DNA of 64,000 nt, from the IMG/VR virus record IMGVR_UViG_3300035191_000049; one strand, given 5' to 3'. The translations under genes were made by a program, and so were the position numbers. The notes under the pieces are model-generated. The model searched no databases. It was not told the DNA's origin and worked only from the letters and a program-made list of their open reading frames with translations. Source of the DNA: a virus. Positions 27,069 to 30,281 of this stretch are shown in pieces; position 1 is the stretch's first letter, and each line of letters begins with the position of its first letter.

Positions 27069-27355
27069 AAGAGCTTCGCAGGAAGACCGAGGAAGAGGTC
27101 GCGGAAATACGGCGCCAACTCAAAGACATGGGGCCGGTCCTCACTGCTGACGGCTTCGACACCTGCATCATCGGTTTTTGCTACACTCCGGGGCCTGGCG
27201 ACAGGATCGTATACTCCACGGATCTCATCATCGAGAAGTTAATCGAAGACGGATTAACCTTCGAGGAAGCCCACGAACACTTCGAGTTCAACATCGAGGG
27301 CGGCTATCATGGAGAGAAGACCCCCGTCTTCTTGAGATTCTTCCCAGACCTATGA
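27065..27355 (+). CDS. hypothetical protein
   Basis: ATGA coupling. Confidence 0.45.
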   Translation: MKELRRKTEEEVAEIRRQLKDMGPVLTADGFDTCIIGFCYTPGPGDRIVYSTDLIIEKLIEDGLTFEEAHEHFEFNIEGGYHGEKTPVFLRFFPDL

Positions 27356-28101
27356 GAGACCTACTCCTGAAAAGCCCCCAGCCTCGCCTCTACATGGCGA
27401 ACCCTGGCAATCTTGGGGACGCCCTCATTCGCCAGGGAACAATTCGATTTTTCAAAGACATCGGGCTCGTCTACGAGGAGATCACCAGACCGCCAAAGGA
27501 GGCGACGGGCACCTTTATCTTCGGCGGTGGCGGCGCTTGGTGCGCTAACTGGAACCATAGCCACTTCGTTAACGCCTCGGTGCCCAAGGCCAAGCAGGTT
27601 ATTGTGCTTCCGTCGACCTACGCCGTCCGCAGCCCTCTGTTCAATATCCCAAAAATCCACTTCTTTGCCCGCGACAACCGTGACAGCCTTCTCTACTGTC
27701 CTGACGCCACCTATCACCAAGACATGGCATTCCACCTCGCACCCGCTCTCAAGCCGCAAGAGGGCGATGGCGTCGGCCACTTCATGAGGACCGACAAGGA
27801 GAGCGCCAGACACTTCAAGATCCCCAAGGGAAATCGCGACATCAGCGTGTGGGGCGAGACCTACCACAACACGAGCCCCTTTATCGAAGCCATCAACAAA
27901 GTCCGCGAGGTTCACACTGACCGCTTGCACGTCGCAATTGTCGCGTGCATGCTGGGGAAACGGGTTGTCTTCTACGGGGGCAACTACTTCAAAAACAAGG
28001 CAATTTATCTCTCACGTATGAAGGGCCAGTTCGATGTCACATTTAGAGAGCATGATCGCGGCCAACCTTCTCACGGGGAAGCTACCTCAAGCAACAGGTG
28101 A
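27352..28101 (+). CDS. polysaccharide pyruvyl transferase-like protein
   Basis: 'NPGNLGD' N-terminal and 'TDRLHVAI' motifs typical of PF04230. Confidence 0.4.
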   Translation: MRDLLLKSPQPRLYMANPGNLGDALIRQGTIRFFKDIGLVYEEITRPPKEATGTFIFGGGGAWCANWNHSHFVNASVPKAKQVIVLPSTYAVRSPLFNIPKIHFFARDNRDSLLYCPDATYHQDMAFHLAPALKPQEGDGVGHFMRTDKESARHFKIPKGNRDISVWGETYHNTSPFIEAINKVREVHTDRLHVAIVACMLGKRVVFYGGNYFKNKAIYLSRMKGQFDVTFREHDRGQPSHGEATSSNR

Positions 28102-28921
28102 GGTCAGCGCTAAGTTTCTCAAAGGAGCAAGGAGGGCTATCGATACCTACAGAACCTGGGGTCTTCGAAGCAACGTTGATCTGTCCCGGTTTACCCCTGT
28201 AGTTCACGAGCAGGGCGGCGAGCGCGTAGCGACATTCTTCACCCTTGGCGTCGACTCCTTCTATACACTGATCACCCACTTGGACGAAATCGACGACCTC
28301 ATTTACGTCATCGGATTTGAGCGTCGGATAACAAAGAATGTTTTGGATGAGGTCACCAAAAAGATCCGGCTGGTCGCAGACCATTTCGGAAAGTCCCCAG
28401 TTATCGTCCACTCCAATCTTCGGGAGACACTGGACAAGCACGTCGCGTGGTACAAGTACGGCCACGGGCCTGCGCTGGCCTCTATCGGGCTCGCGAAGGA
28501 AGAAACTCACAAGAAGATCTACATCCCTGCCTCGAACACGATGACCTTCCCCCAGGAGTGCTCGACTCACCCGCACATCGACCCGCTATGGAGCACAGAG
28601 ACACTTGAATTTGTCCACGACGCTCCTATCACACGACCAGAAAAGCTCAGGGTCGTTGCTGAACTACCTTACGTGCGAAACCTCTTACGTGTCTGCTGGC
28701 AGGGGAACGCCTACAACTGTGGTAAGTGCGAGAAATGCGTCAGGACGATGCTTTCGCTCAACCTGCTCGGCTACAGCAGCGACGCTTTCGGCAAGCGCCC
28801 AAACCTTTCTCACATCAACCAACTAAGCCGCAGCGCCAAGGGCACTACCAATTGGGCTCTTTGGGCTCAGAACATTGCTGAAGCTGAAGATCTGCTGAAG
28901 GCGCTCAAGGGTCAGCTATAG
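28034..28921 (+). CDS. hypothetical protein
   Basis: ORF; CGKCEKC. Confidence 0.45.
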   Translation: MSHLESMIAANLLTGKLPQATGEVSAKFLKGARRAIDTYRTWGLRSNVDLSRFTPVVHEQGGERVATFFTLGVDSFYTLITHLDEIDDLIYVIGFERRITKNVLDEVTKKIRLVADHFGKSPVIVHSNLRETLDKHVAWYKYGHGPALASIGLAKEETHKKIYIPASNTMTFPQECSTHPHIDPLWSTETLEFVHDAPITRPEKLRVVAELPYVRNLLRVCWQGNAYNCGKCEKCVRTMLSLNLLGYSSDAFGKRPNLSHINQLSRSAKGTTNWALWAQNIAEAEDLLKALKGQL

Positions 28922-29454
28922 ACCCCTCTATTTGCATGCGGGAAAGGCTTTTTCGGGACCGGCTCCCCCAAGAACGAACAGACCTGGTCCCAGCCGTCAC
29001 CTTCCTCCCAGTTCACAACGAGTAAGTCCCCAGGACGATCAGAGAAGTACTTCTTCACCTCAGCGTTGTGTCTCTCAAAACGCGCGATGAGCTTCTCGTC
29101 TGTGGCTTCAGCGTAGGTGAACCCGTAAATCTCCCTCCGAGCCTTTTCCCGATCTCTCAATCTTGCAGCGGGCTGCTTGGACACTGCATTGTGATAGCTC
29201 CTGAGCCACCGGGCGCTATCACGAATCGTCAGGATGAATTTGCTTCCAGGGAAGCGCATATCCAGCTCCTTGTAATAGATAGCCCACGGCCAATCATCGA
29301 AACTATCAAAACGGCGAGCGATCGACATCGCCTGTTCAGGCCTTCCAAGCAGGCTCAGTTGGTGTCCATAGTGACGATATCCAAGAATCTTACAACATGC
29401 ACCCAGTGTCGTTGTTCCCGTTTTTGCCCAACCCACCCCCACAACCTTGTTCAC
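28912..29454 (-). CDS. sulfotransferase family protein
   Basis: PAPS 5'-phosphosulfate-binding-like 'GWAKTGTTTL' and 'TIRDSARWLRSYHN'. Confidence 0.5.
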   Translation of the reverse strand: MNKVVGVGWAKTGTTTLGACCKILGYRHYGHQLSLLGRPEQAMSIARRFDSFDDWPWAIYYKELDMRFPGSKFILTIRDSARWLRSYHNAVSKQPAARLRDREKARREIYGFTYAEATDEKLIARFERHNAEVKKYFSDRPGDLLVVNWEEGDGWDQVCSFLGEPVPKKPFPHANRGVYS

Positions 29455-30281
29455 GGCTCACCCCATCCCTTCTCGTTTCGAACCACCGTTTGCAGTTGAT
29501 AATAACGTTTGCGGTTAGCCACCGTCCCTGGTGACTTCTCGTTGATGAAGCTCGGATGGAACTGGTGCAGGTTGACGATGTTTTCCTTGACGGTGAGGTT
29601 GTGCCATTCAAGGCCGTGTTGTATGAGCCGGTCGACGATGTCGTTGTCGTCAGCTCCCCACGCCCTGTCGTAGACCTCATCAAAGCCGCGAATCTCTTCA
29701 ATAACCGACCTTGGCGCAACGATTCCACCTCCATAAGCATAGCGCCTGATTCTCCCCTGAGGGACCAGCTCCCGCACTCCCCCCTTCTTATCCACAGGAC
29801 TGTGATTCTTCCGGAGGTAGGAGAACCAACAGGTGACGAGTTTTCCCGGCCTGCGCAGAGAACGCGCGAGAAACTCCGGATCTAACACCGTATCGGCATC
29901 GATGAAGACGAGCGCATCGTTTTTTGCTGCTCGGGCGCCCATGTTCCTCGCCAAGCACAGCGGAAAATGCCCGAAGGTCTTGTTCGCCTCGACAAGACGA
30001 ACGTTGTGCTCTCTCACCAGCGAGGCGAGCTGCTGCCTTTCGTCCTCAGAAGAGTCACCCCGATTCAAGTAAACAAGGATCAGCTCGACGTTTCCGTGGT
30101 TCACGTAATCCTGCCAGCGCACCGAACGCAGACAGTTGGCCAGTCGACTCAGGTACGCCTGTCCACCTCCAAATGGAACGATGACACTGGCAGATTGCTT
30201 GGGAGGAGTGGGTCCTCGGTAACGATCAGGAAGCGACGTTCTACGAAACCAGCCGGGATACCGAGCGGATTTAAACTTCAT
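29451..30281 (-). CDS. glycosyltransferase family 2
   Basis: 'VIVPFGG' N-terminus and 'FIDADTV' DxD. Confidence 0.6.
   Translation of the reverse strand: MKFKSARYPGWFRRTSLPDRYRGPTPPKQSASVIVPFGGGQAYLSRLANCLRSVRWQDYVNHGNVELILVYLNRGDSSEDERQQLASLVREHNVRLVEANKTFGHFPLCLARNMGARAAKNDALVFIDADTVLDPEFLARSLRRPGKLVTCWFSYLRKNHSPVDKKGGVRELVPQGRIRRYAYGGGIVAPRSVIEEIRGFDEVYDRAWGADDNDIVDRLIQHGLEWHNLTVKENIVNLHQFHPSFINEKSPGTVANRKRYYQLQTVVRNEKGWGEP

Follow-up and report, generated by a model that had tools for sequence, protein, structure and literature searches.

Giant eukaryotic viruses and some mycobacteriophages glycosylate their own particles with their own glycosyltransferases, and remodelling of the host surface is best documented for temperate phages. 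The Gtr systems, of which the known examples belong to temperate phages, work through membrane proteins: the flippase GtrA, GtrB and a GT-C enzyme that acts at the periplasmic face. A small arrangement is found at the wbbY-wbbZ locus of Klebsiella pneumoniae O1, a laterally mobile add-on which caps a glycan made by other genes (PMC10629545). WbbZ is an experimentally proven PEP-dependent pyruvyltransferase which, like Pvg1p, prefers beta-Gal; it acts on the terminal residue and in vitro ends chain extension early, ie it is a PEP-dependent terminator of O-antigen polymerisation (PMC10629545). QueC is recognised by the hallmark motifs SGGxDS and C(x)8CxxCxxC, and by a substrate motif, YxQxHxxE, which follows the PP-loop (PMC13329287).

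The locus described here was found in a stretch of 64,000 nt (the window) from IMG/VR virus record IMGVR_UViG_3300035191_000049, and its four genes are labelled A, B, C and D. The source appears to be an uncultivated huge phage. Its phage nature is itself judged from 33 tRNAs, from endolysin, SSB and HNH genes, from the predominance of ORFans among its genes and from relatives whose contigs measure about 100-290 kb; there is no capsid or terminase gene within the window. The four adjacent open reading frames, first pointed out in a sequence-only reading of this DNA, are all present where that reading placed them. They are tightly packed between 27352 and 30281 as two convergent pairs, A-B on the plus strand and D-C on the minus strand, and the 3' ends of B and C overlap by 10 nt (Table 1). 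The ATG of gene A overlaps the stop of orf96 (27065-27355), and A and B close a same-strand gene run which starts with a DNA-polymerase-type exonuclease gene and has no recognisable structural gene near it. Because each of the four has at least 20 metagenomic homologues, with 52-74% identity and matching starts, we regard A-D as real genes and not chance reading frames. All four proteins are basic (pI 8.9-9.7). None has a transmembrane segment or signal peptide, the highest 19-residue Kyte-Doolittle mean in A-D being 1.35, and for this lack of any hydrophobic segment a seroconversion cluster of the Gtr type was rejected. Genes for a flippase, a polymerase, a priming transferase or the synthesis of nucleotide sugars or PAPS were absent from the window ORFs scanned.

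Table 1. Cassette genes and neighbouring features of the window, with the profile matches or scans that identify them.
Feature	Coordinates	Strand	Size or position	Match or basis
Gene A	27352-28101	+	249 aa	PF04230 PS_pyruv_trans, 34.8 bits (gathering cutoff 25.3)
Gene B	28034-28921	+	295 aa	No Pfam family above cutoff
Gene C	28912-29454	-	180 aa, GTG start	PF17784 Sulfotransfer_4, 115 bits (cutoff 22.8)
Gene D	29451-30281	-	276 aa	PF00535 GT2, 44.4 bits; PF02709 Glyco_transf_7C, 28 bits
Promoter-like site ATGACA-17-TATCAT	30289..30317	-	Just upstream of gene D	Consensus scan
Terminator-like hairpin, 12-bp stem, 8 G-C pairs	30333..30364	-	Between MVP stop and gene D	Consensus scan
MVP gene	30495-33449	-		MVP_shoulder, 55.7 bits; Vault_3; Vault_4
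FGE-domain lipoprotein gene	46425-47474	-		PF03781 FGE-sulfatase, 112 bits

The four genes form one conserved unit. At least seven related phage-like contigs have them together, and the convergent A-B/C-D layout is seen again in L002, L003/L004, L010, L055 and the fragments L011-L013, with different flanks. The 10-nt overlap between the ends of B and C is identical in L002, L003 and L055, and L003 has two copies of the sulfotransferase gene. Between relatives the cassette proteins are 58-74% identical, compared with 25-45% for the flanking genes. Such genes had been called unusual in phages, and this is borne out for A, B and C: no tblastn match to them was obtained in 50,697 GenBank phage records.

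The suggestion that gene A encodes a pyruvyl transferase is borne out by its PF04230 match, which lies above the gathering cutoff and aligns residues 20-209 with profile positions 1-277 out of 280. As a single sequence (phmmer), residues 3-223 matched K. pneumoniae WbbZ (PDB 6x1l) with an E value of 7.7e-25, and profile A4 matched WbbZ at 4.7e-39 and Pvg1p (5ax7) at 2e-31. The residues invariant in 10 homologues are N20-x-G22-D23, R107, R146/D148/E150, R191/H193 and K214, the stretch D190-R191-L192-H193 reading DRLH in the window sequence. The corresponding reference motifs are N29xG31D32 and H226 in WbbZ and the PEP-binding arginines R217 and R337 in Pvg1p. The NxGD motif and the histidine are kept in A, and its stretches RTD.E and TDRLH align with the equivalent regions of both enzymes; read off this alignment, R146 and R191 may correspond to the PEP-binding arginines of Pvg1p. 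In the Rxxx(S/T) motif of pyruvyltransferases, R107 is invariant; cellular relatives of A have the serine at R+4, and the phage clade has it one residue further on, at R+5 (RDNRDS, RDTNQS). On homology and motifs, the product of gene A is assigned as a ketal-pyruvyltransferase of the WbbZ/Pvg1p clade. In L014 the gene after a B-A pair encodes a GT31 galactosyltransferase, in keeping with the beta-Gal preference of WbbZ and Pvg1p.

Gene D had been called a family-2 glycosyltransferase, and the PF00535 match agrees. Its conserved residues include D128-A-D130 (the DxD motif), W208-G-A-D-D-N-D214 and H239. The top Foldseek matches of its AF2 model (pLDDT 81) are all GT-A enzymes, with 287 matches at E <= 0.001; they include the chondroitin polymerases K4CP (E 3e-13) and CHSY3, along with ppGalNAc-T1/2, TarP and hyaluronan synthases. 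We classify D from these matches as a soluble GT-A glycosyltransferase, of GT2 type with a beta4GalT-like C-terminal segment. The closest structures span GlcA, GalNAc, GlcNAc, Rha and Fuc transferases, a mixture of sugars from which the donor and linkage of D are not readable by fold. There is also a weak PHROG match to GtrB-like proteins (E 0.0047).

The PAPS-type sulfotransferase proposed for gene C was likewise supported, by PF17784, and we place the protein by sequence in the Sulfotransfer_4 family. It matches PDB 9kf1 with an E value of 1e-18, the alignment including a G-x-G-x-x-K/R-TGT loop (GVGWAKTGTTT in C, GAGFGRTGTLS in 9kf1) and an RDSxRW motif (TIRDSARWLRS and TVRDSERWYDS). We take these to be the PAPS-binding loops, namely the 5'-phosphosulfate loop and the 3'-phosphate motif. 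Cellular homologues of C, at about 50% identity, adjoin PS_pyruv_trans genes in two polysaccharide loci; the Allomesorhizobium locus also has a Wzx flippase, and the Halochromatium locus an ABC exporter, KdsA, KdsB and an acyltransferase.

Gene B was left as an unknown in the sequence-only reading. It does lack a family above threshold in Pfam, NCBIfam and PADLOC, but a QueC-like ATPase fold is predicted for it. The AF2 model (pLDDT 94.6) gave QueC 3bl5 as the best PDB match in Foldseek (E 4.7e-4) and phage QueCs as the best BFVD matches; a profile of 48 B homologues matched no PDB chain. Invariant in those 48 homologues are F68, F69, G72, D74 and S75, in the consensus loop FFSxGVDS, and C221, C229, C232 and C235, so that the QueC motifs are present as variants only, [S/T]xGVDS and C(x)7CxxCxxC. 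From the modelled fold we assign B to an unnamed family of QueC-like PP-loop/zinc ATPases, and by analogy it is predicted to be an ATP-dependent carboxylate-activating (amide-forming) enzyme. Cellular genomes carry the family in at least 557 places. Of 79 loci in species-representative genomes, 22 have an A-type pyruvyltransferase gene no more than 6 kb from B, often adjacent, the other 57 having no pyruvyltransferase within that distance. Among the 122 ORFs that neighbour cellular B homologues, GT2 (11), PS_pyruv_trans (5), GT1/4 (5) and AsnB-like (5) proteins are over-represented. Taken from the cellular neighbours of B and C and from L014, the substrate of the cassette is probably a glycan.

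A secreted lipoprotein with an FGE/SUMF1-like domain had also been grouped with the cluster. The domain itself is present (Table 1), but the catalytic cysteines of FGE are missing. The protein has a lipobox, MRPLLVLLLSLLFSGC, and a long D-G-D/D-S-D repeat, and its gene lies 16 kb from the cassette, inside the tRNA array. The catalytic stretch of FGE is RGGSxxCxxxxCxRYR; here it reads RGGYAWDEGRGSRAAKRYR, with no cysteine at the CxxxxC positions. The best NCBIfam matches are TIGR02171 and GldK/PorK-type lipoproteins. A formylglycine-generating enzyme tied to the cassette was rejected because the catalytic cysteine pair is missing and the scan of window ORFs detected no sulfatase family that could be its client, and for the same reasons we consider the lipoprotein unrelated to A-D.

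Our preferred reading, which we hold tentatively, is that A-D constitute a self-contained cytoplasmic cassette for glycan tailoring, which would draw UDP-sugar, PEP, PAPS and ATP from the host and form an anionic cap at the end of a glycan, perhaps one of the host envelope. The families and folds, catalytic motifs, conservation of the cassette and genomic associations come from the analysis above; from here on we infer the order of the reactions, the sugar transferred, the substrate of B and the acceptor. Firstly, D, as a metal-dependent GT-A enzyme, would add a hexose or hexosamine to an existing acceptor, perhaps a Gal-type sugar in beta linkage. A, acting as do WbbZ and Pvg1p, would then use phosphoenolpyruvate to place a pyruvate ketal on the terminal sugar added by D, and C, with PAPS as donor, would sulfate a hydroxyl of that glycan. 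Finally B would adenylate a carboxylate and convert it to an amide or related product, the most economical candidate being the pyruvate carboxyl made by A. Against this candidate, no amidated pyruvate ketal is known from natural glycans, most of the cellular B loci have no pyruvyltransferase nearby, and a uronic acid or some other compound is an equally likely substrate. The acceptor may be a host envelope glycan, such as an O-antigen, capsule or EPS chain, while it is attached to its lipid carrier on the inner side of the membrane. If so, infection would re-cap or prematurely terminate the surface polysaccharide of the host, and binding by other phages or by the phage's own progeny would change.

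The data fit a host glycan or a phage protein as acceptor alike, and the earlier proposal of host-surface or virion modification is plausible. The A-B gene run without structural genes, together with the termination activity of WbbZ, weakly favours a host glycan. It is rather unlikely, though to be taken seriously, that A-D decorate capsid, tail or fibre proteins of the phage instead and give it a strongly anionic coat. Virions assemble in the cytoplasm, where these soluble proteins also reside, and the cassette, which a clade of very large phages conserves strongly, carries no lipid-carrier or export genes. The neighbours of D in structure include the protein O-GalNAc transferases ppGalNAc-T1 and T2, and putative sulfotransferases occur in Megavirinae glycosylation clusters (PMC11625862). 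However, no recognisable structural genes lie beside the cassette in the window, L002, L003 or L055, and the cellular relatives of A, B and C are all in polysaccharide loci, not protein-glycosylation loci.

The tailoring of a small molecule, ie a glycosylated, sulfated metabolite or cofactor in place of a polymer, is improbable. The solved Sulfotransfer_4 structures which match C include the schistosome oxamniquine-resistance sulfotransferases and SgdX2, enzymes which act on small molecules. The best NCBIfam match of D is the mycofactocin glycosyltransferase MftF (44 bits, far below cutoff), and in Foldseek the fold of B also resembles YcfA and ArtA, which like QueC act on small molecules. Such a role sits poorly with the closeness of A to a glycan pyruvyltransferase, with the absence of scaffold-building genes from the cassette, and with the cellular settings of A, B and C, namely polysaccharide loci that also hold flippases, exporters and numerous glycosyltransferases.

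Hypermodification of DNA, in which B would be a phage QueC of the 7-deazaguanine pathway or the cassette would decorate modified bases, is very improbable. Phage QueC proteins are the nearest viral structures to B, A-D are all basic and the cassette lies among DNA-metabolism genes, but B falls below the QueC models: PF06508 gave no match at E <= 0.01, and TIGR00364 aligned only with the C-terminal 32 residues and scored 13.5 bits, its cutoff being 150.3. Nothing similar to YxQxHxxE follows the PP-loop of B. Among the window ORFs scanned there was no match to a QueD, FolE or DpdA/TGT family, the radical-SAM protein of the window resembles NirJ/AhbD/SPASM enzymes, its 25 best matches including no QueE model, and the cellular homologues of B are in glycan loci.

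The cassette had been described as lying upstream of the MVP gene, but in transcription terms D-C is downstream of it. A terminator-like hairpin and then a promoter-like site occupy the gap between the two, and the hairpin suggests that MVP and D-C are separate transcription units; promoter-like sites count for little here, three having been found where 1.9 were expected. Least probable of all is functional coupling to a vault-like MVP shell, with MVP or its cargo glycosylated by the cassette. In its favour, the two are adjacent in this genome and its near-identical copy L058, three genes apart in L002 and near one another in L010. Against it, adjacency is particular to the first two, the hairpin and promoter-like site divide MVP from D, MVP is absent from the approximately 10-kb flanks of L003 and L055, and in cells the A-B module is widespread with no MVP in view.

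A wider proposal, which we consider unlikely, concerns gene B. B and its cellular relatives would be a new QueC-like family acting on the carboxyl of sugar-borne pyruvate ketals, to give an amide, an amino-acid conjugate or a nitrile, and a clade of huge phages would have combined this module with a sulfotransferase and a glycosyltransferase, so that a composite cap, both sulfated and pyruvylated, is written onto the envelope of the host or onto their own particle. If true, the reaction of B on pyruvate ketals would be a glycan modification not yet described.

Compared with known systems, the Megavirinae glycosylation clusters are alike in that large viruses carry their own glycan-building and tailoring enzymes, with putative sulfotransferases noted (PMC11625862). 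This likeness is one of gene content alone, and the Megavirinae clusters differ in encoding nucleotide-sugar synthesis, in having virion fibrils as their target and in working within eukaryotic hosts. The Gtr O-antigen glucosylation clusters and the prophage enzyme TarP, which is near D in structure, are phage-borne glycosyltransferases that alter an existing host glycan; they have neither pyruvylation nor sulfation, and A-D, unlike Gtr, have no transmembrane segments. B shares its fold, PP-loop and C-terminal four-cysteine zinc motif with the QueC family (PF06508), including the repurposed Cap9 and QatC (PMC13329287), and by analogy it would be expected to activate a carboxylate with ATP, for a nitrogen nucleophile then to attack. 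It differs in falling below the QueC sequence models, in having nothing like YxQxHxxE and no PADLOC match, and in its partners, which are pyruvyltransferases and glycosyltransferases and not deazaguanine or defence-system genes.

In the loci of Halochromatium roseum (L056) and Allomesorhizobium camelthorni (L057), the sulfotransferase that is about 50% identical to C adjoins a pyruvyltransferase, and a protein of 267-274 aa with a GT-A-like N-terminus is encoded beside it. These loci carry exporters or flippases and Kdo genes and have no QueC-like gene B, and their pyruvyltransferases are distant from A (26-31% identity over partial alignments). The wbbY-wbbZ locus likewise pairs a glycosyltransferase with a compact pyruvyltransferase (the WbbZ chain has 272 aa, A 249 aa; PMC10629545), and the two pyruvyltransferases are homologous over their full length, with NxGD and the histidine common to both. 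WbbY is a two-module polymerase, whereas the glycosyltransferase of the cassette is a single-domain GT2 enzyme, and the phage cassette, carried by a huge phage, adds to the pair a sulfotransferase and a QueC-like ATPase.

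The gene layout and the Pfam matches (table) bear out what the sequence-only reading had described. The four tightly packed genes, A to D, are present where it had placed them (27352-30281), and the profile searches that it proposed as a check support its assignment of a pyruvyltransferase (A), a sulfotransferase (C) and a family-2 glycosyltransferase (GT2; D). [quoted passage not shown] There is a 68-nt overlap between genes A and B and one of 4 nt between C and D, and the ATG of A overlaps the stop codon of the upstream orf96. B and C are convergent and share 10 nt at their 3' ends (28912-28921), which leaves no space for a terminator between them. 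This overlap has the same length in all three of the related contigs that include both gene ends: L002 (10879-10888), L003 (10867-10876) and L055 (10531-10540).

Features of the window, in order of position (Pfam matches unless otherwise indicated).
Feature	Position	Strand	Match or remark
orf96	27065-27355		upstream of A
A	27352-28101	+	PS_pyruv_trans, 34.8 bits (cutoff 25.3)
B	28034-28921	+	no family above threshold
C	28912-29454	-	Sulfotransfer_4, 115 bits
D	29451-30281	-	GT2, 44.4 bits; Glyco_transf_7C segment
Promoter-like site	30317-30289		between MVP and D
Hairpin	30364-30333		12-bp stem, between MVP and D
MVP homologue, 984 aa	30495-33449	-	MVP_shoulder, Vault_3, Vault_4
PTH2 peptidyl-tRNA hydrolase	35447-35776	+
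Suppressor tRNA	35798-35874	+	anticodon TTA (reads UAA)
Neighbour of radical-SAM protein	43383-43976	-	weak DUF2284 metal-binding match
Radical-SAM protein	43973-44872	-	NirJ/AhbD/SPASM/MoaA-like
tRNA array, 32 genes	44983-63537	-	most amino acids covered
FGE-domain lipoprotein	46425-47474	-	lipobox LFSGC; FGE-sulfatase-type domain
Endolysin	49266-50279		PG_binding_1, Amidase_2
RNA-binding protein	56724-58310	-	PHROG match (phrog_850)

The arrangement of A and B facing C and D is repeated in L002, L003/L004, L010, L055 and the fragments L011-L013, and L058 is almost identical to the window. The genes to either side vary, with an exonuclease and MVP in L002 and a DNA methylase and Tad6 in L003, which has two copies of the sulfotransferase gene. 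Between relatives the cassette proteins are 58-74% identical, and the adjacent exonuclease and orf190 25-45%. All four cassette proteins are basic, and none has a transmembrane segment or a signal peptide.

The window carries 33 tRNA genes, an endolysin, a PTH2 gene and a PolB-type exonuclease, together with SSB, HNH nuclease and DNA methylase families; most of its ORFs are ORFans, and its relatives are metagenomic contigs of about 100-290 kb, among them Ga0612018_0085 (290 kb), Ga0123573_10000042 (101 kb) and a 123.6-kb JGI contig carrying P0121. These features fit an uncultivated huge phage. As there is no capsid or terminase gene in the window, its phage nature is something that we infer. 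Megablast of positions 25000-35000 gave no nucleotide match to GenBank phages. NCBI lists the D and C proteins of L055 (JGI Ga0452216_006487, 25.6 kb) under a Planctomycetota MAG. This may point to the host or reflect a binning artefact; B-family genes are also present in Pirellulales genomes (L074, L113). The suppressor is the only tRNA on the plus strand and lies directly 3' of the PTH2 gene. With TAA as the stop in 23 out of 88 rough gene calls, the window shows no obvious stop-codon recoding. The tRNA array is interleaved with small ORFs, the FGE-like lipoprotein gene and the endolysin gene. The remaining ORFs of at least 100 aa gave Pfam matches to OMP decarboxylase, NUDIX hydrolase, SpoU methylase and the HAD_SAK_2 RNA-repair domain. 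Together with the PHROG RNA-binding protein (phrog_850), these matches hint that the tRNA region has roles in nucleotide and RNA repair.

In a single-sequence search, nearly the whole of A aligned with the crystal structure of Klebsiella pneumoniae WbbZ (E = 7.7e-25), and a profile of ten A homologues matched WbbZ at 4.7e-39 and Schizosaccharomyces pombe Pvg1p at 2e-31. Experiments have shown that WbbZ is a PEP-dependent pyruvyltransferase which modifies the beta-Gal at the end of the O1 antigen; in vitro it ended O1 polymerisation prematurely (PMC10629545). The family motifs are NxGD, Rxxx(S/T) and a histidine, with PEP-binding arginines also present in Pvg1p (PMC10629545). A and its relatives keep N20-x-G22-D23, R107, R146-x-D148-x-E150, R191, H193 and K214, and the sole motif change in the phage clade is the serine of Rxxx(S/T), displaced by one position. 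On these alignments A can be placed with confidence in the WbbZ/Pvg1p pyruvyltransferase clade.

C aligns with the solved sulfotransferases 9kf1 and SgdX2 and with the schistosome oxamniquine-resistance enzymes, and the nucleotide-binding loops are kept. The substrates of SgdX2 and the schistosome enzymes we take to be small molecules, and small-molecule tailoring by the cassette is a minor rival to an action on polysaccharide. The bacterial relatives of C (50% identical) are found in polysaccharide loci beside pyruvyltransferases. One such locus, in Halochromatium roseum, encodes an acyltransferase, two sulfotransferases, two pyruvyltransferases, an ABC exporter, KdsA and KdsB, and another, in Allomesorhizobium camelthorni, a Wzx flippase, a pyruvyltransferase and a sulfotransferase. 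Proteins of 267 and 274 aa beside cellular sulfotransferases are GT-A-like only very weakly (E = 0.035). D has 27 phage-type homologues, followed by a gap down to cellular GT2s at 26% identity, and it retains the DxD and WGxDDxD motifs. Its predicted fold is GT-A, nearest to the chondroitin polymerases K4CP and CHSY3, ppGalNAc-transferases, heparosan synthase and TarP, and this predicted fold cannot reveal the donor or the linkage.

B has 21 full-length phage-type homologues (55-68% identity), and one further copy is truncated but matches the window protein at 100% identity. Its cellular homologues number more than 100; most are 370-440 aa long, and identity is 30-46%. None of these proteins has a Pfam domain or an informative name. 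No match came from a PDB sequence-profile search with the family, nor from IMG/VR when either B by itself or the phage-type alignment was the query. An AlphaFold model from 48 sequences (pLDDT 94.6) found QueC (3bl5) as its best PDB match, followed by YcfA, GMP synthase, TtuA, argininosuccinate synthase and the nitrile synthetase ArtA, and phage QueCs were the top matches in a viral structure library. From these matches B is predicted to have the fold of the PP-loop ATP pyrophosphatases. F68, F69, G72, D74 and S75 are invariant in the family (consensus loop FFSxGVDS), as are the cysteines C221(x)7C229xxC232xxC235. The hallmarks of QueC are SGGxDS and C(x)8CxxCxxC (PMC13329287), of which the two motifs in B are variants. 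Several lines of evidence argue that B is not QueC. It fails QueC sequence models, nothing similar to the QueC YxQxHxxE motif follows its PP-loop, the window ORFs scanned contained no QueD, FolE or TGT family, and the radical-SAM protein, NirJ/AhbD/SPASM-like, is not QueE. A true QueC partnered by that protein as QueE was rejected on the last two points. PADLOC returned no match for any of the six proteins, B included, and a QatC/Cap9-type defence protein was rejected at the sequence level.

At least 557 B-like stretches occur in species-representative genomes of many phyla, including Actinomycetota, Acidobacteriota, Chloroflexota, Planctomycetota, Verrucomicrobiota, Omnitrophota, Gammaproteobacteria and Bathyarchaeia. 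Among 122 ORFs around 38 cellular homologues the commonest families were GT2 (11), PS_pyruv_trans (5), GT1/4 (5), AsnB-like asparagine synthase (5) and PMT_2 (3). In GC-rich loci the gene calls were made with a GC3 filter. Neighbours within 6 kb were counted at the 79 best of the B loci. An A-type pyruvyltransferase was present at 22 of these, often directly adjacent, and a GT2 likewise at 22. One cultivable carrier with a B homologue beside the pyruvyltransferase is Aliagarivorans marinus DSM 23064 (L069). No C-type sulfotransferase (Sulfotransfer_4) was found within 6 kb at any of the 79, and B as an ATP-sulfurylase-like supplier for C was rejected on that count. Two or three tandem copies of the B family were seen at 24 of the 79 cellular loci (L060-L138; for example L094, L098 and L100). 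In an Armatimonadota MAG a pyruvyltransferase and a GT2 are followed by B within a rhamnose-synthesis/glycosyltransferase gene cluster. A second, unrelated large element, L014 (Ga0315276_10000008, 128.6 kb), has at 9794-12572 a B homologue (40% identity) and an A homologue (30%), followed by a eukaryote-like GT31 (Galactosyl_T/Fringe) and then a TPR protein; two GluRS/GlnRS-type tRNA synthetase genes precede its B homologue. The neighbouring families, the 22 loci and L014 together mark B as a putative glycan-pathway enzyme with a pyruvyltransferase as its preferred partner. Enzymes of the QueC family use ATP to activate a carboxylate, which a nitrogen nucleophile then attacks (PMC13329287). 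Since A would make a sugar-borne carboxylate, the simplest hypothesis takes the pyruvate carboxyl as the substrate of B, which would amidate it or convert it further. Against this, 57 of the 79 loci have no pyruvyltransferase within 6 kb, and the substrate might instead be a uronic acid or something else.

We propose a cytoplasmic capping pathway in which D would add a sugar, A would pyruvylate it, C would sulfate and B would modify a carboxylate. Flippase, polymerase, priming transferase, nucleotide-sugar, PAPS-synthesis and sulfatase families were all absent from the window ORFs scanned, so the cassette must decorate an acceptor of other origin and would draw UDP-sugar, PEP, PAPS and ATP from the host. 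The acceptor that we tend to favour is a lipid-linked glycan of the host envelope, because all cellular relatives of A, B and C are in polysaccharide loci, WbbZ itself caps and terminates an O-antigen, and the cassette lies among genes of replication type, not structural genes. The main rival, still plausible, is glycosylation of the virion. DNA modification is a minor rival, as is decoration of MVP.

The links that the sequence-only reading drew from the cassette to MVP and to the FGE-domain lipoprotein were not supported. There is one earlier report of MVPs in phages, which came from the human gut (bioRxiv 10.1101/2023.11.10.566534). The homologue is 66% identical in L002 and is found also in L010 and L058. 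In L002 three genes separate it from the cassette, none was found within the roughly 10-kb flanks of L003 and L055, and in the window a hairpin and a promoter-like site intervene. MVP as a functional partner was rejected, as synteny is not conserved. The lipoprotein has an acidic D-G-D/D-S-D repeat of about 55 residues, and among families it matches TIGR02171 and GldK/PorK-type lipoproteins best. Compared with what we take to be the catalytic motif of FGE, it has no catalytic cysteine pair; its gene is inside the tRNA array with no sulfatase partner in the window ORFs scanned, and a role in a sulfation/sulfatase system was rejected.

A conserved pyruvylation and sulfation kit in a huge phage would broaden viral glycan chemistry, and would indicate strongly anionic caps for receptor masking or particle coating. 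The pairing of B with pyruvyltransferases gives a concrete, testable hypothesis of a new step in polysaccharide biosynthesis, and is the part most worth testing. A search of one literature library found no paper that brings together sulfotransferase, pyruvyl transferase, phage and glycosyltransferase. Each enzyme class is already known, as is modification of host glycans by phages, which alter host surface sugars by glucosylation or acetylation from temperate genomes; TarP, among the structural neighbours of D, is a prophage enzyme. The novelty lies in the joining of pyruvylation and sulfation to a QueC-like step, and in a clade of huge phages carrying this set. New too is the lack of relatives of A, B and C, the three genes searched by tblastn, in 50,697 GenBank phage genomes. 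New also is the recognition of the B family, to which a predicted fold and a likely chemistry can be assigned, as a widespread unnamed partner of pyruvyltransferases.
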